Source: a virus
Taxonomy: Duplodnaviria; Heunggongvirae; Uroviricota; Caudoviricetes
IMG/VR virus record: IMGVR_UViG_2778261463_000014
Length of the DNA: 20,704 nucleotides
Reading direction: 5' to 3' (one strand)
Part shown: positions 4,353 through 20,704 of the stretch, one piece after another
Position numbering within the stretch: position 1 is the stretch's first letter
Layout of the letters: every line of letters begins with the position of its first letter
Made by a program: the position numbers and the translations under genes
The notes under the pieces: generated by a model
What the model saw: the letters and a program-made list of their open reading frames with translations, nothing else
What the model was told of the DNA's origin: nothing
Databases searched by the model: none

Positions 4353-4574
4353 TGTCCGCTAAGAGCAAGAAGCGGAAGTTGGCAGTTTTGTGGACTGTCC
4401 CCACAAAAGTGACTACAGAAATAGTTGCAATTCATAATTGATCATGGGTTGTCAGTTAAACTCGTGGCGATTTAAATAGACTAATTGGGAGTGCGTCCAT
4501 TACTTATATCTTGTAATGTTAACTATCAGAAATGATACAAAGATAATATGTCTTTAAAGAAAAGGCTGATGGCG

Positions 4575-4597
4575 AAAAGTGGCCCGATGAGGGCCAC
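4575..4597 (-). terminator. Candidate intrinsic terminator downstream of flxA
   Basis: On the minus strand: GTGGCCC-TCAT-CGGGCCAC followed by TTTT, starting 15 nt after the flxA stop. Confidence 0.5.
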
Positions 4598-4611
4598 AAT
4601 ACGGCTGTCAC

Positions 4612-4944: not shown

Positions 4945-4967
4945 AGATTTCTCCTTTTAAAAAAGCA

Positions 4968-4994
4968 CTATCGGCATGCACAAAAAAATCTTTA
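4968..4994 (-). promoter_or_regulatory. Sigma-28 (FliA) promoter for flxA: TAAAGATT-N11-GCCGATAG
   Basis: Minus-strand sequence matches the FliA consensus TAAAGTTT-N11-GCCGATAA with an 11-nt spacer, about 25 nt upstream of the flxA start codon. Confidence 0.6.
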
Positions 4995-5146
4995 ATCGTA
5001 TTTCTTGTGTCATTAATTGTTTGATGTTCAGATTGTTTTCCTCGCGGGCTGGCGCGCCTCAGAAAGTAAAGCTTGTTGACAGGGGTAAACGTTCGGCAAT
5101 AATTTTCTGCCGCATGCGGGTGTTGCATAAAACGTGTTACGTTCCT

Positions 5147-5452
5147 TTATCGACAGGTCAGGTCACCGCTCACCCGCCGACGAGAAAGCAACACTGACAT
5201 GCTAAAGCAAAAAATAGATGAATAAGTTGAGTTGTGCATATGTAGCCTGACCGTCACAAAGTATATGGTGTCTGTACCAGTAAGATGATGGCCGGACTCT
5301 TTAAAAACGAGCTGACCTGCACAATACAGGATGGACTTAGCAATGGCTGCTCCTGGCACAAAGCGGACAGTGATCACCGTTCTTACGACTACTTTCTGAC
5401 TTCCTTCGTGACTTGCCCTAAGCATGTTGTAGTGCGATACTTGTAATGACAT
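5147..5452 (-). CDS. Hypothetical protein (position corresponds to ydfV between flxA and relB)
   Basis: 101-aa ORF divergent from relB. Its sequence has no features I recognise; assignment is by synteny and size only. Confidence 0.4.
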   Translation of the reverse strand: MSLQVSHYNMLRASHEGSQKVVVRTVITVRFVPGAAIAKSILYCAGQLVFKESGHHLTGTDTIYFVTVRLHMHNSTYSSIFCFSMSVLLSRRRVSGDLTCR

Positions 5453-5465
5453 TTGTAATTACAAG
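5440..5465 (+). promoter_or_regulatory. relO-like operator: inverted repeat CTTGTAAT...ATTACAAG with TTGTAAT repeats in the relBE promoter region
   Basis: Palindrome read directly, 12 bp upstream of the relB start; RelB-RelE autoregulates through such repeats. Confidence 0.7.
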
Positions 5466-5476
5466 AGGTGTAAGAC

Positions 5477-5716
5477 ATGGGTAGCATTAACCTGCGTATT
5501 GACGATGAACTTAAAGCGCGTTCTTACGCCGCGCTTGAAAAAATGGGTGTAACTCCTTCTGAAGCGCTTCGTCTCATGCTCGAGTATATCGCTGACAATG
5601 AACGCTTGCCGTTCAAACAGACACTCCTGAGTGATGAAGATGCTGAACTTGTGGAGATAGTGAAAGAACGGCTTCGTAATCCTAAGCCAGTACGTGTGAC
5701 GCTGGATGAACTCTGA
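5477..5716 (+). CDS. relB: RelB antitoxin
   Basis: 79-aa translation MGSINLRIDDELKARSYAALEKMGVTPSEALRLMLEYIADNERLPF... recognised as RelB; stop overlaps the relE start (TGATG). Confidence 0.95.
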   Translation: MGSINLRIDDELKARSYAALEKMGVTPSEALRLMLEYIADNERLPFKQTLLSDEDAELVEIVKERLRNPKPVRVTLDEL

Positions 5717-6003
5717 TGGCGTATTTTCTGGATTTTGACGAGCGGGCACTAAAGGAATGGCGAAAGCTGGGCTCGACGGTACGTGAACAGTTGAAAAAGA
5801 AGCTGGTTGAAGTACTTGAGTCACCCCGGATTGAAGCAAACAAGCTCCGTGGTATGCCTGATTGTTACAAGATTAAGCTCCGGTCTTCAGGCTATCGCCT
5901 TGTATACCAGGTTATAGACGAGAAAGTTGTCGTTTTCGTGATTTCTGTTGGGAAAAGAGAACGCTCGGAAGTATATAGCGAGGCGGTCAAACGCATTCTC
6001 TGA
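5716..6003 (+). CDS. relE: RelE toxin (ribosome-dependent mRNA interferase)
   Basis: 95-aa translation MAYFLDFDERALKEWRKLGSTVREQLKKKLVEVLESPRIEANKLRGMPDCYKIKLRSSGYRLVYQVIDEKVVVFVISVGKRERSEVY... recognised as RelE. Confidence 0.95.
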   Translation: MAYFLDFDERALKEWRKLGSTVREQLKKKLVEVLESPRIEANKLRGMPDCYKIKLRSSGYRLVYQVIDEKVVVFVISVGKRERSEVYSEAVKRIL

Positions 6004-6074
6004 ACCAAAGCATGACATCTCTGTTTCGCACCGAAGGTGACACTTCTGCTTTGCGTTGACAGGAGAAGCAGGCT

Positions 6075-6230
6075 ATGAAGCAGCAAAAGGCGATGTTAAT
6101 CGCCCTGATCGTCATCTGTTTAACCGTCATAGTGACGGCACTGGTAACGAGGAAAGACCTCTGCGAGGTACGAATCCGAACCGGCCAGACGGAGGTCGCT
6201 GTCTTCACAGCTTACGAACCTGAGGAGTAA
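6075..6230 (+). CDS. hokD: HokD (RelF) Hok-family small membrane toxin, 51 aa
   Basis: Hand translation: MKQQKAMLIALIVICLTVIVTALVTRKDLCEVRIRTGQTEVAVFTAYEPEE; below the 60-aa cutoff of the ORF track. Confidence 0.9.
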   Translation: MKQQKAMLIALIVICLTVIVTALVTRKDLCEVRIRTGQTEVAVFTAYEPEE

Positions 6231-6298
6231 GAGACCCGGCGGGGGAGAAATCCCTCGCCACCTCTGATGTGGCAGGCATCCTCAACGCACCCGCACTT

Positions 6299-6330
6299 AA
6301 CCCGCTTCGGCGGGTTTTTGTTTTTATTTT
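6299..6330 (+). terminator. Intrinsic terminator after relB-relE-hokD
   Basis: CCCGC-TTCG-GCGGG hairpin followed by TTTTTGTTTTTATTTT. Confidence 0.7.
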
Positions 6331-6446
6331 CAACGCGTTTGAAGTTCTGGACGGTGCCGGAATAGAATCAAAAATACTTAAGTAGCGCGCAGGGATAAGA
6401 GGGATGGTCCCTTAAAGGGGAGAGCTAATTATCCGGAAGGATTCTG

Positions 6447-6698
6447 ATGATGAACATCGAAGAACTGCGTAAAATTTTTTGTGAAGATGGCCTCTATGCT
6501 GTGTGCGTTGAAAATGGAAATCTTGTTAGTCATTACCGCATTATGTGTTTGCGAAAGAATGGGGCTGCGTTAATTAATTTTGTGGATGCTCGGGTCACGG
6601 ACGGATTTATCTTGCGCGAAGGTGAGTTTGTCACTTCATTACAGGCATTGAAAGAGATCGGAATAAAAGCTGGCTTTTCTGCTTTTTCAGGAGAATAA
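6447..6698 (+). CDS. rem: Rem (small prophage protein, function unknown)
   Basis: 83-aa translation MMNIEELRKIFCEDGLYAVCVENGNL... recognised as Rem; SD-like GGAAGG upstream. Confidence 0.85.
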   Translation: MMNIEELRKIFCEDGLYAVCVENGNLVSHYRIMCLRKNGAALINFVDARVTDGFILREGEFVTSLQALKEIGIKAGFSAFSGE

Positions 6699-6764
6699 AC
6701 TCATCTACAATCTTGCGCGGGGCTGAACTCCCGCTGAGTAACACCGTGCCACCGGAGAAAACCG

Positions 6765-7043
6765 ATGGCACGCAACGCAAAATATTACAATTCTGATAAT
6801 TCGCCCGTTCTTGCCTGCACGCACGGGCGGTATTCTCACGCATTCAAGTCTGAATGGTTCCAGCACCCTCCATGCACTGCAGAACAGGCCGAATGGCTGA
6901 TTCATTCTTACCGCAGGCGCGGGTTCGAGGTTAAGAAAGCTCTCAGTCTCGACTATCGGCACTGGATAATCTCTGTCAGGCTGCCTTATTCCGAACGCCC
7001 ACCACGTGCGTCCCGCACTTTCCAGCAACGGATCTGGAGGTAA
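6765..7043 (+). CDS. Hypothetical 92-aa protein, or frameshifted N-terminal part of the DUF968 gene
   Basis: ORF with GGAG 8 nt upstream of its ATG; overlaps the next ORF by 38 nt in a different frame. Confidence 0.4.
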   Translation: MARNAKYYNSDNSPVLACTHGRYSHAFKSEWFQHPPCTAEQAEWLIHSYRRRGFEVKKALSLDYRHWIISVRLPYSERPPRASRTFQQRIWR

Positions 7044-8094
7044 CGTGCGGGTATTACTTAGACCTGTTCTGGTGCCTGAGCTTGGGCTGGTGGTCCTTAA
7101 GCCGGGCCGTGAATCCATACAGATATTTCATAATCCTCGAGTGCTGGTGGAACCGGAACCAAAAAGCATGCGTAATCTGCCATCCGGAGTCGTTCCTGCC
7201 GTTCGCCAGCCGCTGGCGGAAGACAAAACATTGCTGCCGTTTTTTAGTAACGAACGGGTGATTCGTGCTGCTGGCGGCGTTGGCGCATTGTCCGACTGGC
7301 TATTACGTCATGTTACATCCTGCCAGTGGCCTAATGGCGATTACCATCACACTGAAACAGTCATTCACCGTTATGGTACCGGCGCAATGGTGTTGTGCTG
7401 GCACTGCGACAACCAACTGCGTGACCAGACATCGGAATCACTGGAGCTGCTTGCTCAACAAAATCTGACAGCATGGGTGATTGACGTCATCTGTCACGCA
7501 ATAAGCGGTACGCAGGAGCGGGAATTATCTTTGGCTGAATTATCCTGGTGGGCGGTCTGCAATCAGGTGGTGGATGCACTACCTGAGGCTGTATCGCGTC
7601 GTTCGCTGGGATTACCAGCGGAAAAAATCTGCTCGGTGTACCGCGAAAGCGACATCGTACCGGGAGAGCAGACCGCCACCAGCATATTGAAACAACGCAC
7701 AAAAAATCTTGCACCGTTGCCTTACGCCCACCAGCAACAAAAATCACCACAGGAAAAGACGGTGGTAAGCATCACCGTTGATCCAGAGTCTCCGGAATCT
7801 TTCATGAAGCTGCCTAAACGTCGCCGCTGGGTTAAGGAGAAATACACACGTTGGGTTAAGACACAGCCGTGTGCTTGCTGCGGTATGCCAGCCGACGATC
7901 CGCATCATCTGATTGGTCACGGGCAGGGCGGAATGGGAACAAAAGCACATGATCTCTTTGTGTTGCCTTTGTGCAGAAAGCATCACAACGAGCTGCATAC
8001 GGATACAGTGGCATTTGAAGATAAGTATGGCTCCCAACTGGAGCTGATATTTCGTTTTATCGATCGCGCGCTGGCAATTGGCGTACTGGCGTAA
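7006..8094 (+). CDS. ydfU: DUF968-family nin-region protein (YdfU-like) with C-terminal Cys/His HNH-like motif; true start uncertain
   Basis: 362-aa ORF; C-terminus CACCGMPADDPHHLIGHGQGG...CRKHHNELH; lies between rem and Q as in Qin. Confidence 0.8.
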   Translation: MRPALSSNGSGGNVRVLLRPVLVPELGLVVLKPGRESIQIFHNPRVLVEPEPKSMRNLPSGVVPAVRQPLAEDKTLLPFFSNERVIRAAGGVGALSDWLLRHVTSCQWPNGDYHHTETVIHRYGTGAMVLCWHCDNQLRDQTSESLELLAQQNLTAWVIDVICHAISGTQERELSLAELSWWAVCNQVVDALPEAVSRRSLGLPAEKICSVYRESDIVPGEQTATSILKQRTKNLAPLPYAHQQQKSPQEKTVVSITVDPESPESFMKLPKRRRWVKEKYTRWVKTQPCACCGMPADDPHHLIGHGQGGMGTKAHDLFVLPLCRKHHNELHTDTVAFEDKYGSQLELIFRFIDRALAIGVLA

Positions 8095-8107
8095 GTGGAG
8101 AACGAGC

Positions 8108-8860
8108 ATGAACCTTGAAGCCTTACCAAAATATTACTCCCCAAAATCTCCAAAATTGAGCGATGACGCTCCAGCGACAGGCACCGGTTGTTTAACAATT
8201 ACGGATGTAATGGCAGCGCAGGGGATGGTGCAGTCGAAAGCACCACTTGGGTTGGCCTTATTTCTGGCAAAAGTTGGTGTTCAGGACCCTCAGTTTGCGA
8301 TTGAAGGCCTGCTAAATTACGCGATGGCACTGGATAACCCGACATTGAACAAATTGAGTGAAGAAATCCGGTTACAGATTATTCCTTACCTCGTGAGTTT
8401 TGCCTTTGCTGATTACTCCAGGTCTGCGGCAAGTAAGGCTCGCTGTGAGCATTGTTCAGGTACGGGATTTTATAATGTATTGCGCGAAGTGGTGAAACAC
8501 TACAGACGCGGGGAATCTGTAATCAAGGAAGAATGGGTGAAGGAACTATGTCAGCATTGCCATGGTAAGGGCGAAGCCAGCACAGCGTGCAGAGGGTGTA
8601 AGGGTAAAGGGATTGTTCTGGATGAAAAAAGAACCCGGTTTCATGGCGTACCGGTATATAAGATTTGTGGGCGTTGTAATGGAAACCGGTTTAGTCGTTT
8701 ACCGACCACGCTGGCACGACGTCATGTCCAGAAGCTGGTACCAGACCTGACCGATTATCAGTGGTATAAGGGGTATGCGGACGTCATTGGTAAACTGGTA
8801 ACAAAGTGCTGGCAGGAAGAAGCATACGCGGAAGCGCAATTGAGGAAGGTGACGAGATAA
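8108..8860 (+). CDS. quuQ: Late-gene antiterminator Q
   Basis: 250-aa protein from MNLEALPKYY...; Cys-rich zinc-binding region (CEHCSGTG...CQHCHGKG...CRGCKGKG) typical of Q-family antiterminators. The listed ORF start (8078) is upstream of the likely start. Confidence 0.9.
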   Translation: MNLEALPKYYSPKSPKLSDDAPATGTGCLTITDVMAAQGMVQSKAPLGLALFLAKVGVQDPQFAIEGLLNYAMALDNPTLNKLSEEIRLQIIPYLVSFAFADYSRSAASKARCEHCSGTGFYNVLREVVKHYRRGESVIKEEWVKELCQHCHGKGEASTACRGCKGKGIVLDEKRTRFHGVPVYKICGRCNGNRFSRLPTTLARRHVQKLVPDLTDYQWYKGYADVIGKLVTKCWQEEAYAEAQLRKVTR

Positions 8861-8891
8861 ATGATTTTTGCTGAAGATGGCGACATGATGT

Positions 8892-8920
8892 TTGCATTTT
8901 TCAAAAAATATGGATAAAAT
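8892..8920 (+). promoter_or_regulatory. Candidate late promoter (pR'-like): TTGCAT-17 nt-TAAAAT, about 35 bp downstream of Q
   Basis: Sigma-70-like hexamers read from sequence; position analogous to lambda pR'. Not verified. Confidence 0.35.
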
Positions 8921-8965
8921 TTTTTCAACGATGGGCTTTGTATACCCGACGTTAAGAAAAAGTAG

Positions 8966-8996
8966 AAAACCCGCTGATGAGCGGGTTTTGTGCTTT
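8966..8996 (+). terminator. Intrinsic terminator (tR'-like) about 45-70 nt downstream of the candidate late promoter
   Basis: AAAACCCGC-TGATGA-GCGGGTTTT hairpin plus T-run. Confidence 0.65.
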
Positions 8997-9281
8997 AAAT
9001 GGGGCAATGGTAATGTTGAATCTCATCCCGGGACTCATGTCTGTTAACTTATTATTTAGCTGGTGACTTGGTTATTTGCCTGATGTTTAAAATGTTTTCT
9101 TCCAGTACAATGTCCCTAAACACAATGAGTCTGCTTATTATATTATTAGCAGAGCTATTACGGCCAAAGTACAGCATAAGCTTTTAAAGCCAATCAACCA
9201 GTCATCAAGACAGACGGGGTTATTCATAAAAACTCTCCATGTGTGATCCGATGGGGCCTGAAATTAAAGCTTTAATATAGC

Positions 9282-9494
9282 TCATGAAAGGTAAACATTG
9301 GCAGCTGAAGGGCCACGCAGACCATTTATCCGGCAAAATTCCACGCGTAATCCGGTGGTAATTTCTTCTGCATCGCGGAGATTGAGCGCTGAAACATGAA
9401 GCTGGACATCGATACGACCATCGGATGGGGTGATAAGACCCTTGCCGCTTTTGCCGTCAAAGGTTTTGACAATTCCTGTCATTTTACGGGACAA
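9282..9494 (-). CDS. cspF: Cold-shock-domain protein CspF
   Basis: 70-aa translation [53 protein letters not shown]...; CspA-family fold, divergently oriented from cspB. Confidence 0.9.
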
Positions 9495-9794
9495 AAAAAT
9501 TCCTTAATACTGATAACTTGGCGCACTATACACACGTTCCTGAAGAAAGCTATAGTTTTTTGATGGGGTTGAAGATGGCTGGATGTCTAAAATAAACATT
9601 GCTTCATATGTTCAACTATGCGTTAATGATTGCGTCGGTTTGAAGAACAGACGATATACGAAGTAGTTTACTAAAGCAGTTCTCATTTCAGGTGTTATTC
9701 ACTTATTCCTTCTTTGAGTCTCTCCAATTAAGTACGAAGTCGTTTCTGTTATGCAAACCATTTATGCCGAAAGGCTCAAGTTAAGGAATGTAGA

Positions 9795-10010
9795 ATGTCA
9801 AATAAAATGACTGGTTTAGTAAAATGGTTTAACGCTGATAAAGGTTTCGGCTTTATTTCTCCTGTTGATGGTAGTAAAGATGTGTTTGTGCATTTTTCTG
9901 CGATTCAGAATGATAATTATCGAACCTTATTTGAAGGTCAAAAGGTTACCTTCTCTATAGAGAGTGGTGCTAAAGGTCCTGCAGCAGCAAATGTCATCAT
10001 TACTGATTAA
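9795..10010 (+). CDS. cspB: Cold-shock protein CspB
   Basis: 71-aa translation [51 protein letters not shown]... with RNP1/RNP2 motifs (KGFGFI, VFVHF). Confidence 0.95.
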
Positions 10011-10290
10011 AATTCATCGCTCGTCTGTATACGATAACGAAGAAGGCTGATGCCTGAGTAGAGATACGGACAGAGTAGTGAATATTGGATCTCTTTAATA
10101 AAAAGTAAGGAGGTCCAATACATGAAACAATGGCTAGCATATTTGGCAAAATCTTAATCAGGAAAAGTATGCTAACCATTGTGGTGAAGTGCAGGTTTGC
10201 TGCATGAATAGTTTTACAGCAGAAGCTAACTGCTGGCATGGCAAAACAAAGTGCGTAAGTGGATGACTCCCACAAAAAGCACCACAATCT

Positions 10291-10318
10291 CAAACCCGCT
10301 CAGGCGGGTTTTTTATTA
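10291..10318 (+). terminator. Intrinsic terminator (possibly bidirectional) between cspB and the zinc-ribbon gene
   Basis: CCCGC-TCAG-GCGGG followed by TTTTTTAT; A-rich on the 5' side. Confidence 0.6.
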
Positions 10319-10373
10319 TCTGCTTTAAATATATTATTAAAATATAAAAAATACTTGTTACTAATAAAATCAA

Positions 10374-10544
10374 TCAGGCTACAGCTTTAAGATTTGTCTG
10401 GAATACTTTGTTGCAATGAGGGCAGATCAAAAGGGCACCTTTTTGTACTCTTGAAAAACTGTGTTCTGACTCTTGGGTGCAGTTTGGGCAGGAACATTTA
10501 ACGAGATAATTACGGCGTGATTTTGAGTTTTTACGTTCTGACAT
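10374..10544 (-). CDS. ynfU: Small zinc-ribbon protein (YnfU-like), 56 aa from MSERKNSK
   Basis: CxCPxC...18 aa...CPxC motif (KCSCPNCTQES...ICPHCNK). The listed ORF (to 10595) probably over-extends the N-terminus. Confidence 0.6.
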   Translation of the reverse strand: MSERKNSKSRRNYLVKCSCPNCTQESEHSFSRVQKGALLICPHCNKVFQTNLKAVA

Positions 10545-10763
10545 AGGCTTTTCCTGTATAAATGGCCGTATACAGTACACTAAATATGAAAACATTTCTC
10601 GTATTATTATTTTATATATGACTTTCTTTCAAAATAATTACCCACATTTTTAATGTGTATGTTTTTTTAGCGCCGTTGAGAACAACGTGTGCTGTCAAAA
10701 CTACCCCGTAGACTCCGATCTTTTCAAACATATTGCACCATCCGTGTACATCGGGGTGAGGAT

Positions 10764-10979
10764 ATGAAATCAATGGATAAGTTAACAACAGGTGTTGCCT
10801 ATGGCACATCGGCGGGTAATGCTGGTTTCTGGGCATTGCAGTTACTCGATAAAGTAACTCCGTCACAGTGGGCTGCAATCGGTGTGCTGGGTAGCCTGGT
10901 TTTTGGCCTGCTGACGTATCTGACAAATCTTTATTTCAAGATTAAAGAAGACAGGCGTAAGGCTGCGAGAGGAGAGTAA
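10764..10979 (+). CDS. essQ: Class II holin / pinholin (phage-21 S-like) with dual-start motif MKSM
   Basis: 71 aa from [71 protein letters not shown]; two TM segments; Met1/Met4 dual start. The listed ORF start (10689) is upstream. Confidence 0.85.
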
Positions 10980-10983
10980 TCCA

Positions 10984-11291
10984 ATGACTCAAGACTATGA
11001 ACTGGTTGTGAAAGGAGTCCGTAATTTTGAGAATAAAGTTACGGTAACTGTAGCCTTACAGGACAAAGAACGCTTTGACGGTGAAATTTTTGACCTGGAT
11101 GTCGCCATGGACCGTGTTGAAGGAGCTGCGCTGGAGTTTTATGAGGCAGCAGCCAGAAGGAGCGTCCGGCAAGTCTTCCTGGAAGTAGCAGAAAAATTGT
11201 CAGAAAAAGTTGAGTCTTATCTGCAGCATCAGTACTCCTTTAAGATTGAAAATCCTGCCAATAAGCACGAGCGTCCTCATCATAAATATCT

Positions 11292-11295
<4 letters not shown>
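10984..11295 (+). CDS. ydfR: YdfR-like small protein (function unknown) within the lysis cassette
   Basis: 103-aa ORF between holin and endolysin; recognised as YdfR by sequence and position. Confidence 0.8.
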
Positions 11296-12319
<1,024 letters not shown>

Positions 12320-12681
12320 GGTAATATTAAATCGGAACATTTACATCGCGGAATGTAAAATTTAAATAAAAAGGACTCTTCCATGAGCCAAAATTCCTGA
12401 AATCTTAAGGGTAAGATAAAAGGTCTTAATCAGAATGACACGTTTTATTAATAAATAAAGCTATTCTTTCATTGCTGTGTTTTTCTTTACAAAAGTAATC
12501 CTTGCTATGGGTGGTTAATCATGCGTTAATGGTGTTCTGGTTTGTTACAAATTTATCTGAAGCAGTCATTGTTATAATTTTATTATTTGTACCTCTTGAG
12601 ATTTCCTTGTTGGTTTTTCTCTCTGATATTTTTTTTCGGACCATTCTGCCCAAGGGCTAATTTCTTCAAAAGGTAATAATT

Positions 12682-12894
12682 ATGTCTAACAAAATGACTG
12701 GTTTAGTGAAATGGTTTAACCCTGAAAAAGGTTTTGGTTTCATCACGCCGAAAGATGGCAGCAAAGATGTGTTTGTCCATTTCTCAGCAATTCAGAGCAA
12801 CGATTTCAAAACATTAACTGAGAATCAGGAAGTTGAATTTGGTATTGAGAACGGACCTAAAGGTCCTGCCGCTGTTCATGTAGTGGCGCTTTGA
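12682..12894 (+). CDS. cspI: Cold-shock protein CspI
   Basis: 70-aa translation [53 protein letters not shown]...; preceded by a long AT-rich leader. Confidence 0.95.
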
Positions 12895-13093
12895 GGTAGA
12901 CAATATTACAAACCATATTCACTTTAGATGCCCGTGTTGTCATGGTTCCCAGTATAGAACATCATCTTTTGATGTTTCTGACATGAATCCTTTCGGGGCA
13001 AAATGTATCTTTTGTAAATCAATGATGATTACATTTGATAATATTTCACAATACTTAAATGCCAGCCGTCTGTCGTTGGATTTAAAAAAGTGA
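12884..13093 (+). other. Unlisted zinc-ribbon reading frame (YnfU-like architecture) with no ATG/GTG/TTG start, between the cspI stop and its terminator
   Basis: Hand translation of the frame: ...IHFRCPCCHGSQYRTSSFDVSDMNPFGAKCIFCKSMMITFDNISQYLNASRLSLDLKK, stop at 13091-13093. CxCC...CxxC spacing parallels ynfU. Possible pseudogene or non-canonical start. Confidence 0.3.
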
Positions 13094-13098
13094 AAATG

Positions 13099-13122
13099 AA
13101 GGCTCCTTCGGGAGCTTTTTTG
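13099..13122 (+). terminator. Intrinsic terminator after the cspI region
   Basis: GGCTCC-TTCG-GGAGC followed by TTTTTT. Confidence 0.6.
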
Positions 13123-13240
13123 CTTGGTGTCTATTCGATGGATACTCACATACTACGGTAACATCATGAAAAAAATCATAGTTTTTTTTAACTCTGAACC
13201 AGCAGTGGTAGTGCCAGCGATGACTGGAGTTAACACCATC

Positions 13241-13396
13241 ATGCGTGAATATCCAAATGGCGAAAAAACACACCTTACTGTAATGGCCGCAGGGTTTCCA
13301 TCTCTGACCGGAGATCATAAAGTCATTTATGTAGCCGCGGATCGACATGTTACTTCAGAAGAAATTCTGGAAGCAGCAATAAGGCTCTTGAGTTGA
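13241..13396 (+). CDS. ynfN: YnfN-like small protein (51 aa from MREYPNGEK); the reading frame is open upstream to an ATG at 13166 (76-aa form)
   Basis: The internal start at 13241 has GGAG 11 nt upstream and gives the 51-aa size I recall for YnfN; the longer frame begins MKKIIVFFNS. Start choice unresolved. Confidence 0.6.
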   Translation: MREYPNGEKTHLTVMAAGFPSLTGDHKVIYVAADRHVTSEEILEAAIRLLS

Positions 13397-13567
13397 TTTG
13401 ATGCTATTGCATTGATAATTCAGGAAAATTCTCTTTGTCTGTTTGTGTAAAATTTAGACTATCGTATGTTGATTATTGCGATGTTTCATCTTATCTTTTA
13501 CACGTTTGCACCATATAATCGACTTACTGTGTAACTGGAAAGTCATAACAGACTAAAAGAGGAAATG

Positions 13568-13741
13568 ATGAATATTGAAAACTTAAAAACAAAAGCAGAA
13601 GCAGATATTTCTGAATATATAACAAAAAAAATTATTGAACTTAAGAAAAAGACCGGGAAAGAAGTTACCAGTATTCAGTTTACCGCACGGGAAAAAATGA
13701 CGGGTCTTGAAAGCTATGATGTCAAGATTAATTTAATCTGA
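13568..13741 (+). CDS. gnsB: GnsB (GnsA/GnsB family small protein), 57 aa
   Basis: Hand translation MNIENLKTKAEADISEYITKKIIELKKKTGKEVTSIQFTAREKMTGLESYDVKINLI; SD AGAGGA upstream. Below the ORF-track cutoff. Confidence 0.9.
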   Translation: MNIENLKTKAEADISEYITKKIIELKKKTGKEVTSIQFTAREKMTGLESYDVKINLI

Positions 13742-13767
13742 TGTATTCAATAATAAAATTTATCCAT

Positions 13768-13793
13768 AAACCTCGTTTTTACGGGGTTTTGTT
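13768..13793 (+). terminator. Candidate intrinsic terminator after gnsB
   Basis: CCTCG-TTTTTA-CGGGG (one G-U pair) followed by TTTTGTT. Confidence 0.45.
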
Positions 13794-13892
13794 ATATTTG
13801 AATGGTTCCGAATATCTAAATCACAATTGTTGATGGTTTTTATTAAACCAATGCAGTCCGGCTCAGGAGTGAGAGAAGCCGGACGTTATGGT

Positions 13893-14318
13893 TTAGCGTG
13901 GTAAGATCTGTGTAGTTTTCTGGATGCTTTCAGTAAATAGTAATGAATTATCAAAGGTATAGTAATATCTTTTTTGTTCGTGGATATTTGTAACCCACCG
14001 AAAAACTCCTGCTTTAGCAAGGTTTCTTCTGTATTCCTGAAATGTGATCTCTCTGGATTTCAGCTTATTAGAGGTCGTTTCTATAAGATGCCTATCCTTT
14101 GAAAATTTGACAGACACAATGTTTTTTAGGCCCTTTAATAACACTGTATTATCATTTTTTAATACAATATGAACATTCTCTGTGGCTAAATAGTAAATGT
14201 AATGTGAGACATTGTGACGTTTTAGCTCAGAATAAAACCATTGATAGTTTAAATCGTTTCGAACTTTATCAAATATTTGTTTAAAAATGACTACCTGATC
14301 CATAGATAAACCTTCCAT
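13893..14318 (-). CDS. ydfO: YdfO (DUF1398 family protein)
   Basis: 141-aa ORF; from [56 protein letters not shown]... recognised as YdfO. Confidence 0.85.
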
Positions 14319-14360
14319 GTGATATGAGGGGGCGTAGTCTGCACGATTATCTAAATTGCT

Positions 14361-14594
14361 TCAATCTGGTCTGACCTGTTTTCTGAGCAATTCAGTAATG
14401 TCACTCTTTTCTTTGTTTGCTTCAGAAGAAACTCTTTTTTCTGAGCACAGTCTCCGGCGGCAGGCTTCAATGACCCAGGCTGAGAAATTCCCGGACCCTT
14501 TTTGCTCAAGAGCGATGTTAATTTGTTCAATCATTTGGTTAGGAAAGCGGATGTTGCGGGTTGTTGTTCTGCGGGTTCTGTTCTTCGTTGACAT
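14361..14594 (-). CDS. ynfO: Small ribbon-helix-helix-like DNA-binding protein (YnfO-like), upstream of and co-oriented with ydfO
   Basis: 77 aa; basic N-terminus then RNIRFPNQMIEQINIALEQKGSGNFSAWVIEACRRRL, resembling Arc/MetJ/CopG-type RHH folds. Confidence 0.7.
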   Translation of the reverse strand: MSTKNRTRRTTTRNIRFPNQMIEQINIALEQKGSGNFSAWVIEACRRRLCSEKRVSSEANKEKSDITELLRKQVRPD

Positions 14595-14759
14595 GAGGTT
14601 GCCCCGTATTCAGTGTCGCTGATTTGTATTGTCTGAAGTTGTTTTTACGTTAAGTTGATGCAGATCAATTAATACGATACCTGCGTCATAATTGATTATT
14701 TGACGTGGTTTGATGGCCTCCACGCACGTTGTGATATGTAGATGATAATCATTATCACT

Positions 14760-14980
14760 TTACGGGTCCTTTCCGGTGATCCGACAGGTTACGGGGCGGC
14801 GACCTCGCGGGTTTTCGCTATTTATGAAAATTTTCCGGTTTAAGGTGTTTCCGTTCTTCTTCGTCGTAACTTAATGTTTTTATTTAAAATACCCCCTGAA
14901 AAGAAAGGAAACGACAGGTGCTGAAAGCGGGCTTTTTGGCCTTTGTCGTTTCCTTTCTCTGTTTTTGTCCGTGGAATGAA
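14760..14980 (+). other. Lambda-type cos site: cosQ, cosN (12-nt cohesive end GGGCGGCGACCT at 14794-14805), cosB
   Basis: Sequence ...TTTACGGGTCCTTTCCGGTGATCCGACAGGTTACG|GGGCGGCGACCTCGCGGGTTTTCGCTATTTATGAAAATTTTCCGG... matches the joined right and left ends of phage lambda as I recall them, with a few substitutions. Confidence 0.85.
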
Positions 14981-14982
14981 CA

Positions 14983-15528
14983 ATGGAAGTCAACAAAAAG
15001 CAGCTGGCTGACATTTTCGGTGCGAGTATCCGTACCATTCAGAACTGGCAGGAACAGGGAATGCCCGTTCTGCGAGGCGGTGGCAAGGGTAATGAGGTGC
15101 TTTATGACTCTGCCGCCGTCATAAAATGGTATGCCGAAAGGGATGCTGAAATTGAGAACGAAAAGCTGCGCCGGGAGGTTGAAGAACTGCGGCAGGCCAG
15201 CGAGGCAGATCTCCAGCCAGGGACTATTGAGTACGAACGCCATCGACTTACGCGTGCGCAGGCCGACGCACAGGAACTGAAGAATGCCAGAGACTCCGCT
15301 GAAGTGGTGGAAACCGCATTCTGTACTTTCGTGTTGTCGCGGATCGCAGGTGAAATTGCCAGTATTCTCGACGGGATCCCCCTGTCGGTGCAGCGGCGTT
15401 TTCCGGAACTGGAAAACCGACATGTTGATTTCCTGAAACGGGATATCATCAAAGCCATGAACAAAGCAGCCGCGCTGGATGAACTGATACCGGGGTTGCT
15501 GAGTGAATATATCGAACAGTCAGGTTAA
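14983..15528 (+). CDS. nohQ: Terminase small subunit Nu1
   Basis: 181-aa translation MEVNKKQLADIFGASIRTIQNWQEQGMPVLRGGGKGNEVLYDSAAVIKWYAERD... essentially lambda Nu1; starts just after cosB. Confidence 0.95.
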   Translation: MEVNKKQLADIFGASIRTIQNWQEQGMPVLRGGGKGNEVLYDSAAVIKWYAERDAEIENEKLRREVEELRQASEADLQPGTIEYERHRLTRAQADAQELKNARDSAEVVETAFCTFVLSRIAGEIASILDGIPLSVQRRFPELENRHVDFLKRDIIKAMNKAAALDELIPGLLSEYIEQSG

Positions 15529-16564
15529 CAGGCTGCGGCATTTTGTCCGCGCCGGGCTTCGCTCACTGTTCAGGCCGGAGCCACAGACCGCCGTTGAATG
15601 GGCGGATGCTAATTACTATCTCCCGAAAGAATCCGCATACCAGGAAGGGCGCTGGGAAACACTGCCCTTTCAGCGGGCCATCATGAATGCGATGGGCAGC
15701 GACTACATCCGCGAGGTGAATGTGGTGAAGTCTGCCCGTGTTGGTTATTCCAAAATGCTGTTGGGTGTTTATGCCTACTTCATAGAGCATAAGCAGCGCA
15801 ACACACTTATCTGGTTGCCGACGGATGGTGATGCCGAGAACTTTATGAAAACCCACGTTGAGCCGACCATCCGCGATATTCCGTTGCTGCTGGCGCTGGC
15901 TCCGTGGTATGGCAAAAAGCACCGGGATAACACGCTCACCATGAAGCGTTTTTCCAATGGTCGTGGCTTCTGGTGCCTGGGCGGTAAAGCGGCAAAAAAC
16001 TACCGTGAAAAGTCGGTGGATGTGGCGGGTTATGATGAACTTGCTGCCTTTGATGAGGATATTGAACAGGAAGGCTCTCCGACGTTCCTTGGCGACAAAC
16101 GTATTGAAGGCTCGGTCTGGCCAAAGTCCATCCGTGGCTCCACCCCCAAAGTGAGAGGCACCTGCCAGATTGAGCGTGCAGCCAGTGAATCCCCGCATTT
16201 TATGCGTTTTCATGTTGCCTGTCCGCACTGCGGGGAGGAGCAGTACCTTAAATTTGGCGATAAAGAGACGTCGTTTGGCCTCAAATGGACGCCGGATGAT
16301 CCCTCCAGCGTGTTTTATCTCTGCGAACATAATGCCTGCGTCATCCGCCAGCAGGAACTGGACTTCACTGATGCCCGTTATATCTGCGAAAAGACCGGGA
16401 TCTGGACCCGTGATGGCATTCTCTGGTTTTCGTCATCCGGTGAAGAGATTGAGCCGCCGGACAGCGTGACCTTTCACATCTGGACGGCGTACAGCCCGTT
16501 CACCACCTGGGTGCAGATTGTCAAAGACTGGATGAAAACGAAAGGGGATACCTTCTGCCCGTAA
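15503..16564 (+). pseudogene. Terminase large subunit gpA, 3'-truncated: about 350 of about 640 residues, ending ...KTKGDT then FCP-stop
   Basis: Translation MNISNSQVNRLRHFVRAGLRSLFRPEPQTAVEWADANYYLPKESAYQEGRWETLPFQRAIMNAMG... matches the lambda A N-terminal region; start overlaps the Nu1 end as in lambda; homology stops near 16550. Confidence 0.85.
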
Positions 16565-16565
16565 G

Positions 16566-17750
16566 GTGAATGGTAAGGCGCTTTCAGCGGATATAACACT
16601 GACGCCGAAAGATATTGGTACGCTTAACTCAACAACAATGTCATTCAGCGGTGGTGCTGGTTGGTTCAAATTAGCAACGGTAACCATGCCACAGGCGAGT
16701 TCTGTTGTTTCAATTACGTTGATTGGTGGCGCGGGATTTAACGTGGGGTCACCTCAACAGGCAGGTATATCTGAACTTGTTTTGCGTGCAGGTAATGGTA
16801 ATCCGAAGGGGATTACTGGTGCTTTATGGCAGCGCACATCGACAGGGTTTACAAATTTTGCCTGGGTCAATACATCTGGTGATACTTACGATATTTACGT
16901 TGCAATCGGAAATTATGCGACTGGTGTAAATATTCAATGGGATTATACCAGTAATGCCAGCGTGACGATTCATACGTCACCAGCATATTCTGCTAATAAG
17001 CCGGAAGGGTTAACGGACGGTACAGTTTATTCACTCTATACGCCATCAGAGCAGTTTTATCCGCCTGGCGCACCAATCCCGTGGCCATCAGATACCGTTC
17101 CGTCTGGCTATGCCCTGATGCAGGGGCAGACTTTTGACAAATCTGCATACCCGAAACTTGCAGCCGCTTATCCGTCAGCCGTGATCCCTGATATGCGTGG
17201 CTGGACGATTAAGGGCAAACCCGCCAGTGGTCGTGCCGTATTGTCTCAGGAACAGGACGGCATTAAATCGCACACCCACAGCGCCAGCGCATCCAGTACG
17301 GATTTGGGGACGAAAAACACATCGTCGTTTGATTACGGAACCAAATCCACGAATAACACCGGGGCGCATACCCATAGTATTAGCGGGACTGCAAATAGTG
17401 CCGGTGCGCACCAACACAAGAGTTCCGGTGCATTTGGTGGCACGAACACGAGCATTTTCCCTAATGGTTATACCGCGATTTCAAATCTAAGCGCGGGGAT
17501 TATGAGCACAACAAGCGGTAGTGGCCAGACTCGTAATGCAGGGAAGACATCATCAGATGGTGCTCATACCCACTCGCTGTCCGGCACTGCTGCAAGCGCA
17601 GGCGCACATGCACATACTGTCGGTATTGGTGCTCATACGCACTCCGTTGCGATTGGCTCACACGGACACACCATCACCGTTAACGCTGCTGGTAACGCGG
17701 AAAACACCGTCAAAAACATCGCATTTAACTATATTGTGAGGCTTGCGTAA
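16566..17750 (+). pseudogene. Side tail fibre protein, C-terminal portion only (5'-truncated; abuts the truncated A gene)
   Basis: 394 codons with repeated GAHTHS / SAGAH motifs typical of lambdoid side-tail-fibre C-termini. The frame opens only at 16536 with a GTG at 16566, so it is unlikely to be expressed as a native protein. Confidence 0.8.
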
Positions 17751-18331
17751 TGGCATTCAGAATGAGTGAACAACCACGGACCATAAAAATTTATAATCTG
17801 CTGGCCGGAACTAATGAATTTATTGGTGAAGGTGATGCATATATTCCGCCTCATACAGGTCTGCCAGCAAACAGTACCGATATTGCACCGCCAGATATTC
17901 CGGCTGGCTTCGTGGCTGTTTTCAACAGTGATGAGTCATCGTGGCATCTTGTTGAAGACCATCGGGGTAAAACAGTTTATGACGTGGCATCAGGGGACGC
18001 GTTATTTATTTCTGAACTCGGCTCATTACCGGAAAATGTTACCTGGTTATCCCCGGAAGGGGAGTTTCAGAAGTGGAACGGCACAGCCTGGGTGAAGGAT
18101 ACGGAAGCAGAAAAACTGTTCCGGATCCGGGAGGTGGAAGAAACAAAAAACAGCCTGATGCAGGTAGCCAGTGAGCATATAGCGCCGCTTCAGGATGCTG
18201 TGGATCTGGAAATCGCAACGGAGGAAGAAACCTTGTTGCTGGAAGCCTGGAAAAAGTATCGGGTATTGCTGAACCGTGTTGATACGTCAACTGCACAGGA
18301 TATTGAATGGCCAGTAGCACCTATAGGGTAA
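17750..18331 (+). CDS. tfa: Tail fibre assembly protein (Tfa)
   Basis: 193 aa, follows the tail-fibre gene with an overlapping start (TAATG); size and position as lambda Tfa / TfaQ. Confidence 0.85.
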
Positions 18332-19189
18332 ATTCGTAATGATTACCTAAATACGTTATTCTTTTGTTCAAAAAGTGATTTTGCTATAGATAGGGAGTAT
18401 GTTCTTGGATTAAGAATAAAAATCGCCATGAAAGAGCTTCATGGCGAGTACATAAACGTACAAAATGTGATGAAAGTAGAGTGGCGTAAGCCACTATATT
18501 AAGATGTGACAATAGCGAAGAAAAGTAAATAACATTTTATGGACGTTTAATTGTTAATTATAAAAACTAGAGTGCCCGATATTGTTTACCTTGCTTTAAA
18601 ATAATGTACTCAAACCAAATTTTTGAGCTAAAAGCTCAAATAATATAAATGCAATAATAATGTTTAATAAGACAATTAGCTTGCTTTGTATTTTCATTTC
18701 GGAATACTGTTAAGTAACTTTGATGACCCTAACAATAGATCGGAATTTTCTTAGAGTCAATGGTCACTGTTTTTGCTTGCAAAGCAAATGTTTTGGTGGT
18801 TATAAGTTGTCTTAATATAGTCACGCATGCAACTTGTTCCATGCGGAGATTAAAGATTGGAATATAACGCTAAGATGGAATTAAATTACATTTGCAATAA
18901 TCAATTTATTATTACTCAATAATTACCGATATTATTATTGTAAATTAATCATTAGAGTGCAAAAAGAAATGTAACGGCAAAATAAGAGGACGATAGCTGA
19001 GAAAAAAGCGTGCTTTCCCAATCTGGGGCAAATCACGTCTGAATGACACCTGAAAACAGGTGGTAGCCTCAAGAAGGCTTGGAATATTCTTCTTTAATGT
19101 TATGTAATTCATTGATTTTTCGTGTACGATTTAAAGACATTTATTCCAAGAAAAATTTTTAACTCTTTGATTTTTCGACTCTGTATCAT

Positions 19190-19251
19190 CGGTCTCGAAA
19201 ACCGGAGTGGGGGCAACTCCACCGGGGGTTCAAATCCCCCTCTCTCCGCCA
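19190..19251 (+). other. tRNA-Ser(CGA)-like 3' fragment (anticodon stem-loop through CCA); not an intact tRNA gene
   Basis: CGGTCTCGAAAACCGGAGTGGGGGCAACTCCACCGGGGGTTCAAATCCCCCTCTCTCCGCCA matches the 3' two-thirds of a class II serine tRNA; the 5' half (acceptor 5' strand and D-arm) is absent upstream. Confidence 0.75.
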
Positions 19252-19297
19252 AAATTCAATCACTTATACATCATTAAGTCAGTGACAAAAATCACAC

Positions 19298-19332
19298 TTG
19301 GAATTACTTGGAATATTTTCTTGGAATATTTT
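19298..19332. repeat. Three tandem direct repeats (CTTGGAATTA / CTTGGAATATTTT / CTTGGAATATTTT) overlapping the last codons of int2
   Basis: Read directly from the sequence; arrangement parallels the three P' arm sites abutting the 3' end of lambda int. Confidence 0.6.
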
Positions 19333-20329
19333 CAGGTAACGGGACATCAAGTGTTGGTGAAACTTTAACCTTCCGGTCATAGATTAGCACTTGCCCTTCG
19401 GTTTTGTGACCAGAGAAAAGTTGCTTATCCCGGCTGCTTCCTTCATAGTCTGAAATTCCTTTCGCCTTCAGATCATGAAAGGTGAAGTCGGTTAAAATAC
19501 CTGAAACTTTGCCTGCGCGATTTCTTGCTTCTACCCACATTTCGTTAAAGCCTTTGTACATATATCGGTTGCCGTATTGATTGCTGATCACATAGGCGGA
19601 TTTTGGTAACTGTTTTGCTTTTTCGACCGCTGCCTGTAATCGTGGACTCCATGCTTTTATCTGTTTTTTCCCTGTTTTCCCTTGCTGGATAAAGATCCCG
19701 TCGTTTCCAATCTGCTCCCATTTCAGCGATAACACATCGGAAACCCTCGCTGCACACAGATAGGCAATTTCCATTGCGATAAAAACAGGAAGGGGTGCCA
19801 CGCTTAATACTGCCTGGTATTCTTTGTCGGTTACATATCGTTCGCGGTTTTTGGCCTTGAATTTACTTACACCTGCACATGGGTTAGCCTTCACGTACCC
19901 TCGCTCATACCCCCAACTGTAAACACGGGACATACTGCTTTTTTCATGGTTGGCTTGCGTTTTACTCTGTTCCCCTCTTTTGTCCATGTATCGACGGATG
20001 TGTTCTGGTTTTATGGAATCCGCTGGTACCTTACCGAATACGGCAAGCAACTTTTTTTGATGTTGCAGATAATCTTTTTGTGTTCTTGGACTAAGATCAC
20101 TGTAACAGGCGCTGGCGAGGAATTTTTCCCACAAGCGACCGAATGTCATTGCACGATCGCGATTATTTACAGTTTCCTCATACTTTTTCCATAAAGCAGC
20201 TAAACCATCCTTGATGGCGGTTAGTGTTACAGATTCTCTGGATGTTGGTTTCCATACATAACTATATTTATTTGGGTATACATTTGGAGGTAATTTTTCG
20301 TGTTCAGGATTTTTCCTTCGTCTTCCCAT
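19304..20329 (-). CDS. Lambda-family integrase (tyrosine recombinase)
   Basis: 341 aa; N-terminus MGRRRKNPEHEKLPPNVY resembles lambda Int MGRRRSHERRDLPPNLY; C-terminal GHK...(9 aa)...Y spacing as lambda H333/Y342. Confidence 0.9.
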   Translation of the reverse strand: MGRRRKNPEHEKLPPNVYPNKYSYVWKPTSRESVTLTAIKDGLAALWKKYEETVNNRDRAMTFGRLWEKFLASACYSDLSPRTQKDYLQHQKKLLAVFGKVPADSIKPEHIRRYMDKRGEQSKTQANHEKSSMSRVYSWGYERGYVKANPCAGVSKFKAKNRERYVTDKEYQAVLSVAPLPVFIAMEIAYLCAARVSDVLSLKWEQIGNDGIFIQQGKTGKKQIKAWSPRLQAAVEKAKQLPKSAYVISNQYGNRYMYKGFNEMWVEARNRAGKVSGILTDFTFHDLKAKGISDYEGSSRDKQLFSGHKTEGQVLIYDRKVKVSPTLDVPLPENIPRKYSK

Positions 20330-20532
20330 CAGATCGCACCAAAATTCGGCTCTACCTCGCGTGGTGGTAAAGTTTTATTGCAGGTAAATAGATCCCGGCT
20401 GACAATCGGTTTGCCACTACGATTGGTATAGAACGGAAGCCCGTTTTCCATTAACCATTTTCGCTGGTGGGTTGCATATTTGCAGCCCGTTAATATTAGC
20501 AATTCATCTTCGGTTAAAAATAAGCTGCTCAT
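20329..20532 (-). CDS. Putative excisionase / small DNA-binding protein
   Basis: 67-aa ORF immediately upstream of int2 with overlapping stop/start; assigned by position. Confidence 0.6.
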   Translation of the reverse strand: MSSLFLTEDELLILTGCKYATHQRKWLMENGLPFYTNRSGKPIVSRDLFTCNKTLPPREVEPNFGAI

Positions 20533-20548
20533 AGCTATATCTCATAAC

Positions 20549-20576
20549 CGCCGCTAACTATATGCGGTTAGCGGCG
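20549..20576. repeat. Perfect 10-bp inverted repeat (CGCCGCTAAC / GTTAGCGGCG, 8-nt loop) between the exo2 stop and the xis2 start
   Basis: Read directly; same position as the 1616-1647 hairpin in the first module but a different sequence. Confidence 0.5.
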
Positions 20577-20590
20577 ATCAGGGTTGAACA

Positions 20591-20704
20591 TTAAAAATCA
20601 GCCTGATTCGGGATCAGTTTTTGTATAGTGGCTGTTACGTATTTTGCCTGGTGAAGAGCGTCATCCAGAGCATTATGGCGCACGCCTTCGAATGGAATTA
20701 CGCT
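20591..20704 (-). CDS. 3' end (C-terminal about 37 codons) of a second exonuclease-like gene, paralogous to 1659-3290; continues beyond the window
   Basis: 20580-20704 aligns by eye with 1650-1775 at roughly 85% identity, with the stop at the equivalent position. Confidence 0.7.
   Translation of the reverse strand, partial: SVIPFEGVRHNALDDALHQAKYVTATIQKLIPNQADF

Follow-up and report, generated by a model that had tools for sequence, protein, structure and literature searches.

The annotation of Escherichia coli K-12 holds two remnants of lambdoid prophages of the same kind as the locus described here, namely nohA-stfQ-tfaQ in the cryptic prophage Qin and nohD-aaaD-tfaD in DLP12, aaaD being a terminase A pseudogene. 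The Qin (Kim) prophage with its nohA-stfQ-tfaQ-pinQ arm was described by Espion, Kaiser and Dambly-Chaudiere in 1983, as cited in PMC5811629, and recombinants of lambda and DLP12 that carry nu1, R or Rz of DLP12 were found to be viable by De Paepe et al. (PMC3945230). The locus studied here lies on a stretch of 20,704 nucleotides recorded as viral (IMG/VR virus record IMGVR_UViG_2778261463_000014, Caudoviricetes), the whole of which is referred to below as the window. Its region running from the packaging site cos to the tail-fibre assembly gene tfa is very probably the cos-nohA(Nu1)-A'-'stf-tfa right arm of a defective lambdoid E. coli prophage with a Qin backbone, A' and 'stf denoting what is left of the terminase A gene and of the side-tail-fibre gene stf. 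That degree of confidence extends to the explanation as a whole, including a role as a passive reservoir of phage modules and the status of the element as something other than a satellite. An earlier note on this DNA had pointed out a lambda-like cos and an intact Nu1 followed by a truncated A and the 3' part of stf, and had likened the arrangement to a cos-containing satellite that a helper lambdoid phage could package or mobilise; the anatomy it described is borne out below, whereas the likeness to a satellite is not.

The backbone was identified from its near identity to known copies of Qin. Window positions 4328-15511 are 99.84% identical to Qin DNA of K-12 MG1655 and positions 1-3265 are 100% identical to the Qin copy of E. 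coli EC3. The gene order maps one to one on the EC3 and K-12 annotations (flxA-ydfV-relBE-hokD-rem-ydfU-ydfT(Q)-cspF/cspB-essQ-ydfR-rrrQ-rzpQ/rzoQ-cspI-gnsB-ydfO-ynfO-nohA), with hokD and the csp genes placed by DNA synteny, without protein comparison. The Q, EssQ, YdfR, RrrQ, Rz/Rz1 and RelBE proteins are 100% identical to those of K-12 Qin and the YdfU protein differs from its K-12 counterpart at two residues. The combination of cos, a Nu1 homolog, a truncated A, a stf/tfa remnant, Q and lysis genes is already annotated in the reference genome. As to chromosomal position, the window begins inside the element; in EC3 the integrase at the end of the matching left part abuts rspB, while the right side of the window leads into a tRNA-Ser attachment site (att) remnant and a second prophage, not into ydfJ.

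BLAST comparison with lambda (NC_001416) matched window positions 14432-14793 to lambda 48141-48502 at 98.3% identity and positions 14794-16551 to lambda 1-1759 at 97.6%, the second block abutting the first at the circularised cos. E-values of the lambda, Pfam and protein matches are effectively zero, and chance is excluded. In the base-level alignment the window is 100% identical to lambda from 48167 through bp 52, a stretch spanning cosQ, the cohesive end and I2. All of these sites lie on the plus strand: cosQ (GGGTCCT) at 14764-14770, equivalent to lambda 48473-48479, which we take to be its position; cosN at 14783-14806, identical to lambda and including the 12-nucleotide cohesive end GGGCGGCGACCT at 14794-14805; and I2 (lambda bp 18-50) at 14811-14843, likewise identical. 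cosB follows at 14843-14962 with R3 (lambda bp 50-65) at 14843-14858, then I1, the R2 core at 14906-14912 and the R1 core at 14947-14953. It differs from lambda in five places, 53 C>T, 73 A>G, 102 T>C, a 1-bp deletion at about 137 and 151 C>T, of which the deletion is present in every compared sequence but the lambda reference. No base is altered relative to lambda in I1 (bp 74-101) or in the CGTTTCC cores of R2 and R1, and since the first indel falls only at about bp 137 the cosN-cosB spacing is the same as in lambda. That spacing is critical in lambda, where R3 comprises bp 50-65, the small terminase subunit (TerS) contacts bp 55-63 and packaging mutations fall at bp 56, 58 and 59 (PMC9026076, PMC4669245); I2 is essential for packaging, as established by Feiss and co-workers, and cosQ acts in its termination (PMC4856287). 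The TerS-contact bases 55-63 are unchanged in the window, which has a single cosN-like site in its 20.7 kb when up to one mismatch is allowed. A diverged cosN or cosB, or a non-functional Nu1, would have told against the reading in the earlier note; at the sequence level cosN, cosQ, I2 and R3 bp 55-63 are those of lambda, Nu1 is intact and cosB carries the five changes listed. Taken together the cos and Nu1 of the window are probably functional in trans.

The first two bases of the R3 core CGTTTCC, bp 53-54 (window 14846-14847), carry a CpG transition in both cryptic lineages: 53T is common to the window, a DLP12-like element at att-lambda in CM2010-0578/1 and K-12 DLP12, and 54A is found in K-12 and EC3 Qin, with both bases unchanged (CG) in all six free phages sampled. 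Selection may have been relaxed here, the CpG may have been deaminated while the prophage was resident, or the polymorphism may simply be tolerated. No free phage with an identical cosB was found, the closest being 98% identical. Since DLP12 has 53T and its recombinants with lambda are viable, some of them with junctions beyond cos on the right, a usable 53T cosB is indirectly implied. A prophage of E. coli O157:H7 TR01 (9001-18081) has the same 81-bp cos haplotype including 53T together with a full-length A and complete lambda-type head genes. In that assembly a frameshift interrupts its Nu1 some 80 codons in, which could be a sequencing error or another route to a defect, and the TR01 haplotype is therefore no proof of cos function. 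A lambda-type cos region occurs in 4586 of the 5426 complete E. coli genomes searched, in up to eight places per genome, and many E. coli chromosomes thus hold several potential terminase cut sites.

Immediately downstream, Nu1/nohA (14983-15528, plus strand) encodes an intact small terminase subunit of 181 amino acids that matches Pfam Phage_Nu1 over positions 1-164 of 164 (E = 9e-101). It differs from lambda Nu1 by the single change L132I, which is present in every cryptic Nu1 copy compared, and is identical to the CM2010 copy. A comparison of non-synonymous and synonymous substitution rates (dN/dS) among the lambda, Qin, DLP12 and window alleles of Nu1 yielded 3-8 codon differences per pair, too few to judge selection. 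As in lambda, the Nu1 gene overlaps the A frame, which here is truncated (15503-16564, plus strand): 350 A codons ending in DWMKTKGDT are followed by FCP and a stop, as the earlier note had read it. GpA_ATPase is the only Pfam domain found in the product, which has lost the nuclease and portal-binding parts. Lacking the C-terminal nuclease domain, the element is unable to cut its own cos. A' differs from lambda A at 31 synonymous and 4 non-synonymous codons, a ratio implying that its divergence arose under selection, before the deletion. The exact 353 amino acid product occurs in 845 blocks of a large assembly index. The absence of portal, capsid and tail genes reported in the earlier note was confirmed, as nothing in the window matches lambda 1760-21237 by BLAST (W, B, C, Nu3, D, E, FI, FII, Z, U, V, G, T, H, M, L, K, I, J and lom) and Pfam scans of the window ORFs (open reading frames) found no structural domains beyond those of the stf remnant and tfa.

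The breakpoint alignment to lambda A and an intact stf, proposed in the earlier note, placed the junction at 16549-16551. The bases TAC at this position are common to A (GGGGATAC/GGG, the slash marking the joint) and to intact stf (CGGGTAC/CTTCTG); where intact stf reads CGGGTAC/CTTCTGCC, the window reads GGGGATAC/CTTCTGCC. Over a longer stretch lambda A continues as AAAGGGGATAC/GGGAAAACG, the intact 972-codon stf of strain 2015C-3163 as AATGGTCGGGTAC/CTTCTGCCCGTAAGGTGAATGG and the window as AAAGGGGATAC/CTTCTGCCCGTAAGGTGAATGG. A codon 350 (lambda bp 1759) is thereby joined to approximately stf codon 587, with 3 bp of perfect microhomology (TAC) that extends to six of seven positions if one gap is allowed (GGG-TAC). 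By these alignments the junction arose through an ordinary illegitimate deletion at a microhomology, which removed roughly 19-20 kb as judged by the lambda map. A 7-bp microhomology (GGGATAC) read from BLAST coordinates was ruled out by the direct comparison with intact stf, a repeat of 7-8 bp belonging instead to the EC3-type junction described below. Beyond the joint lies the 3' part of stf, some 400 codons from about codon 587 of 972 (16552-17750, plus strand, frame 16552/16566), in a frame other than that of A and with Pfam Collar and Phage_fiber domains; window 17060-17345 corresponds to lambda 21238-21523 in the 3' half of stf at 87% identity. The tail-fibre assembly gene tfa is intact (17750-18331, plus strand, Pfam Caudo_TAP) and window 17613-18312 matches lambda tfa at 92.7%. 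Among the complete E. coli genomes the exact 121-bp junction was found in 11 of 5426, and a lambda-type A running uninterrupted across the breakpoint in 3255.

Other copies of Qin and DLP12 have lost the same region at different points. K-12 Qin is joined from Nu1 codon 177 to stfQ, altering the Nu1 C-terminus, and Qin of FORC064 from lambda bp 703 to a 307-bp fragment of J that is followed by tfa. In Qin of WP2-S18-ESBL-08 A extends up to lambda 2268 before joining stfQ, and in K-12 DLP12 A breaks off after some 100 codons, where tfa is attached. The EC3-type junction, found in 48 of 5426 complete genomes, corresponds to the WP2 form after loss of 653 bp between direct repeats of 8 bp, GGGATACG, the flanks being 100% identical; a derivation of the EC3 type from the window type, which shares its A endpoint, was ruled out on this ground. 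Some stfQ bases present in K-12 are missing from WP2, and some A bases present in WP2 are missing from K-12, so these deletions are independent. Varied joints of this kind among Qin copies are the mark of a resident prophage that is still eroding. The window-type and EC3-type deletions are two independent events that share one A nucleotide, lambda 1759 (window 16545-16551, EC3 27873-27880, WP2 3347-3353 and 4000-4006), a shared endpoint only partly explained by the resemblance of both stf sites to GGG(A)TAC. In EC3 (26831-28636) A codons 1-350 are in frame with the C-terminus of stfQ, and the resulting ORF of 601 amino acids is labelled as an intact 'terminase large subunit family protein', a trap for annotation.

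The window is a mosaic with a switch at the packaging site. Left of cosN (14436-14777) it has the K-12 Qin allele at every polymorphic site, and from 14846 to at least 15334 the allele of the att-lambda element of CM2010-0578/1 at all sites but one, placing the change of haplotype within 68 bp (14778-14845) that contain cosN. A random crossover in the 1.1-2.1 kb of shared homology would have a chance of about 3-6% of falling in those 68 bp. Crossover or rejoining of cos ends at the packaging site would explain the switch, which fits the cos-stimulated recombination of De Paepe et al., in whose recombinants 10 of 19 junctions lay beside cos and, among the right-hand junctions, 3 of 19 were situated beyond it on the right (PMC3945230). 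The 81-bp cos haplotype of the window recurs in 205 records, so that the exchange need be neither recent nor unique; an exact 81-mer across cos had no match in a collection with one genome per species. From cos through Nu1, A', 'stf and tfa on to position 19267 the window is 99.5% identical to the att-lambda element and has the same junction.

Between tfa and the tRNA-Ser remnant lie about 850 bp of AT-rich DNA (18332-19190) with no ORF of 50 or more amino acids, 99.5% conserved and unannotated in the att-lambda element. The element ends with the 3' 62 nucleotides of a tRNA-Ser gene (19190-19251, plus strand), an att remnant situated directly before the integrase gene of a second prophage; ARAGORN found no complete tRNA in the window. 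This second integrase is intact (341 amino acids, 19304-20329, minus strand), and after it come a DUF4224 protein and the first part of an exonuclease gene. Positions 19190-20704 are the leftmost part of another lambdoid prophage, of the serU type, set directly against the cryptic one. The order of tfa, tRNA-Ser remnant and second integrase also occurs after a complete prophage in strain 2013C-3264 and was seen in two independent genomes (L013 and L022). Combination of a Qin-type left with a serU-type right suggests rearrangement between prophages. With a Qin-type integrase on the left and a serU-type att remnant on the right, precise excision of the segment from int to tfa as a unit is unlikely. 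A search of window 18300-19400 for the partner of Qin attL gave no match of 10 bp or more, a weak test as the attL region itself lies outside the window, and comparison of the attL region in EC3 identified an 11-bp repeat at ydfJ.

The left end of the element retains an intact Qin-type tyrosine integrase (20-1315, minus strand), an ORF of 431 amino acids for which the annotated start gives 426, with Pfam Arm-DNA-bind_2 and Phage_integrase domains, and a DUF1233 excisionase (1335-1586, minus strand; PF06806, E = 1.6e-31). Beyond them an exonuclease gene fragment without its N-terminus (1659-3290, minus strand; Pfam Rv2179c-like), annotated as partial in EC3, marks the left edge of a lost early region. 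The recombination, immunity and replication region is replaced by insertion sequence (IS) remnants at 3329-4352 (plus strand) that comprise transposase N-termini only (Pfam HTH_Tnp_1 and HTH_38). Window 3265-4352 holds fragments of two different transposases, one like orfA of the IS3 family (HTH_Tnp_1) and one IS30-like (HTH_38), in place of the entire Qin dic immunity and cell-division region. The stretch with these scars (3329-4352) is missing from both K-12 and EC3 Qin, and between the exonuclease fragment and flxA K-12 instead holds ydfW-ydfX-dicC-dicA-ydfABC-dicF-dicB-ydfD-ydfE. No Pfam domain of a repressor, replication initiator, helicase loader, primase or AlpA was detected in the scanned window ORFs of 50 or more amino acids. 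Losses in the element thus flank its late-regulation and lysis block on either side and are not confined to the morphogenesis region. Within that block, the late antiterminator Q (ydfT/quuQ; Pfam Antiterm) occupies 8108-8860 on the plus strand. The lysis cassette (10764-12319, plus strand) consists of the holin essQ (10764-10979), ydfR (10984-11295), the lysozyme rrrQ (11292-11825), the Rz gene rzpQ (11822-12319) and the Rz1 gene rzoQ (12015-12269). All are open and encode the K-12 Qin proteins, in agreement with the earlier note, which had listed Q, holin, endolysin and spanins as kept. The only Rfam matches in the window were two cspA-type thermoregulator leaders upstream of cspB and cspI (9634-10026 and 12536-12921) and the IS009 candidate RNA in the 3' end of tfa (18093-18291), none of them relevant to the question at hand.

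These observations can be brought together as follows. The sequence shows that a single illegitimate deletion fused A at lambda bp 1759 to approximately stf codon 587 at TAC, and that the early region, comprising most of exo with immunity and replication, was lost in a separate event and is now IS debris. With its present gene content the element is unable to make particles or to cut its own cos, and no replication gene is detectable. Its cos-Nu1 module looks functional, presumably through recent descent from, and ongoing recombination with, working lambda-like phages. As a passive reservoir, the element could have its cos cut by the terminase of a growing lambda-type phage, and homologous recombination by Red or RecA could move its cos-Nu1, Q or lysis alleles into that phage; the same processes might also rearrange resident prophages. 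We infer that it is not an autonomous helper-exploiting satellite. Several observations sit less comfortably with this account. For a 'dead' element, the good state of cos, I2, the R3 contact bases and Nu1 is striking. At least four chromosomal settings contain the right arm with the exact junction: att-lambda (ybhB-bioA), the serU/yodB-zinT side, a place next to the second integrase with a DLP12-type left arm, and the Qin backbone of the window. Lastly, in each of at least four deletions of the Qin lineage at one locus the left endpoint lies downstream of cos, either inside the 3' end of Nu1 or past it. We attribute the movement of the right arm between loci to inter-prophage recombination, packaging-based transfer being the alternative. 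The sparing of cos-Nu1 could reflect selection to keep it, ascertainment or selection on neighbouring genes, and the pattern is no more than suggestive. Were selection responsible, cos-Nu1 would be kept in morphogenesis-deleted remnants since helper terminase cuts chromosomal cos sites and so drives transfer or the shuffling of arms. Transfer might then proceed by packaging between two co-oriented chromosomal cos sites, for example in tandem prophage arrays such as that at the right end of the window, or as multimers, while the cuts could lead to cos-to-cos rejoining, shuffled prophage arms and inverted chromosome segments. The switch within 68 bp around cosN, the four contexts of the right arm and four independent Qin deletions sparing cos would be the footprints of such a process, which we nevertheless regard as very unlikely.

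Passive erosion as set out above has also to be weighed against active exploitation of a helper. Phage-inducible chromosomal islands (PICIs) measure about 10-15 kb, carry AlpA and a primase or replicase with an origin and, to our knowledge, are devoid of phage lysis and late-regulation genes. Those of the cos type in enterobacteria have a cosQ and cosN like those of their helper, but their cosB is unrelated to the helper's; the product of rpp, a gene next to cos, redirects helper TerS, and induction of the helper leads to excision and replication of the island (PMC9026076). By analogy a lambda-type helper might cleave the cos of the window element and package it like a cosmid, as an excised multimer or in situ with its flanks, thereby spreading it between cells. 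The lambda identity of cosQ, cosN and I2, the intact R3 contacts and Nu1, the intact int and xis and the several genomic contexts of the right arm all lend themselves to this idea, and a dimer of the approximately 19.2-kb element, about 38.5 kb, would reach the lower edge of the lambda packaging range, which is 38-51 kb between cos sites. Defective prophages of O157 can moreover be released as particulate DNA and transferred (PMC2669165). Against this the window has a single cos and lacks replication genes, and because immunity and replication are lost to IS scars the element cannot make the concatemers that lambda terminase needs. The right att remnant is of the tRNA-Ser type and belongs to another prophage, making precise excision by the Qin integrase unlikely. 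Its cosB is of the helper's own type, and Pfam scans of the window found no Rpp, AlpA, primase, capsid-size control or interference gene. Lysis genes are present that PICIs, so far as we are aware, do without, sister copies decay by varied deletions, and the exact junction is rare (11 of 5426 genomes). We therefore consider a cos-satellite or hitch-hiker very unlikely, and the satellite likeness drawn in the earlier note is not supported for what is a Qin copy with a foreign right att remnant. As to the mobilisation by a helper that it envisaged, the documented route by which a helper acquires such DNA is homologous recombination into the infecting lambdoid phage (PMC3945230), not packaging of the element.

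A protective function for the host may be considered in the same light, with Nu1 and the truncated A co-assembling with the terminase of an incoming lambda-type phage and poisoning it, which would give the host partial protection and favour retention of the module. A' is an open frame of 353 codons with a complete GpA_ATPase domain and a Nu1 overlap as in lambda, and the identical product is widespread in assemblies (the 845 index blocks noted above). Mixed oligomers are conceivable given that terminase is an oligomer of TerS2:TerL1 protomers (PMC4856287). This decoy is nevertheless pure inference and very improbable, as no form of A' is conserved, K-12 Qin having none and DLP12 about 100 codons, and late genes of cryptic prophages need a matching Q for expression. 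Lambda, furthermore, grows well on K-12 carrying nohA and nohD. Finally, the A-stf junction or the hybrid of Qin with a serU prophage might have been mis-assembled across repeated prophage sequence. Lambdoid prophages are classic sites of repeat collapse, and at most 81% of the window is covered in one place by any complete genome in the collection. The exact junction recurs, however, in 11 independent complete genomes and in many other assemblies, the order of tfa, tRNA-Ser remnant and second integrase in L013 and L022, and the switch from Qin left to right arm is a clean haplotype change, its 81-bp cos haplotype being shared by the 205 records; an artefact of assembly or annotation is extremely improbable.

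The preferred interpretation, a Qin-type prophage in decay, makes the locus an instance of a kind already known, which matters little beyond its correct annotation. It is a standard example of lambdoid prophage erosion in which the cos-terminase and lysis modules stay near-identical to those of live phages, and infecting phages can draw on such modules for replacement parts, as has already been demonstrated with K-12 DLP12 and Qin. Its value lies in a base-exact deletion map, in a ladder of independent Qin deletions for the study of prophage decay and in a hint of arm exchange at cos. Satellite behaviour or packaging, if true, would provide a cos-phage counterpart to lateral transduction, although no anatomy argues for it.

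Among mobile elements that depend on a helper, the cos-type PICIs such as EcCICFT073 (Fillol-Salom 2018/2019; review PMC9026076) resemble the window element in being chromosomal, in having an integrase and a cosQ/cosN near-identical to those of lambda-like helpers, in lacking capsid and tail genes and in the dependence on helper TerL that it would have. They differ from it in that the gene beside cos in the window is a full-length Nu1 and not Rpp, that its cosB is lambda's own R3-I1-R2-R1, and that the element, approximately 19.2 kb from int to the att remnant, lacks replication and AlpA genes and has a complete Q-holin-lysozyme-Rz/Rz1 set. P4-like functions (alpha primase, sid/psu/delta) were not found in the Pfam scans, and the cos is of the lambda type, not the P2 type. 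The features that define known satellites are absent from the window, whose anatomy gives no sign of a dedicated satellite. Cosmids, like the window element, carry a lambda cos on DNA without virion genes and are packaged in vivo when a lambda helper supplies terminase and proheads, replication of the cosmid into concatemers making this possible (PMC4856287). A cosmid replicates, whereas the window element has no replicon and a single cos in the 20.7 kb covered; any co-oriented cos that the adjoining second prophage may carry at a suitable distance would fall beyond the window. The defective prophages of O157 Sakai form a pool whose members can be released as particulate DNA, can be transferred and can interact by complementation and recombination (Asadulghani et al. 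2009, PMC2669165). The window element shares with them the position of a defective lambdoid prophage next to another prophage, the second prophage adjoining it directly. The Sakai prophages found in particles, however, mostly keep replication and much of morphogenesis, and the window element keeps neither.

The closest likeness is to the cryptic prophages of E. coli itself. K-12 DLP12 has the same 53T allele of cosB, and its nu1, R and Rz worked in lambda recombinants (PMC3945230). The att-lambda element of CM2010 and DLP12 differ from the window in their left arm, which consists of rusA-quuD-nmpC-essD-rrrD-bor and not of Qin genes. K-12 Qin has, like the window, a lambda-type cos and a Nu1 homolog with a stf-tfa remnant in place of the morphogenesis genes. 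Its deletion runs from Nu1 codon 177 to stfQ and leaves no A, whereas the window has 350 A codons and another stf allele; it keeps dicA, dicC, dicB and dicF with a broken intQ, whereas the window has intact int and xis and IS scars for the dic region; and its right end is pinQ-ydfK-ydfJ, whereas the arm to the right of cos in the window comes from another prophage lineage and ends at the tRNA-Ser att remnant. The differences between the window and the Qin/DLP12 family are accordingly at the level of alleles only, namely the cut point in A, the stf allele, the intact int and xis, the IS scars and the recombinant right arm.

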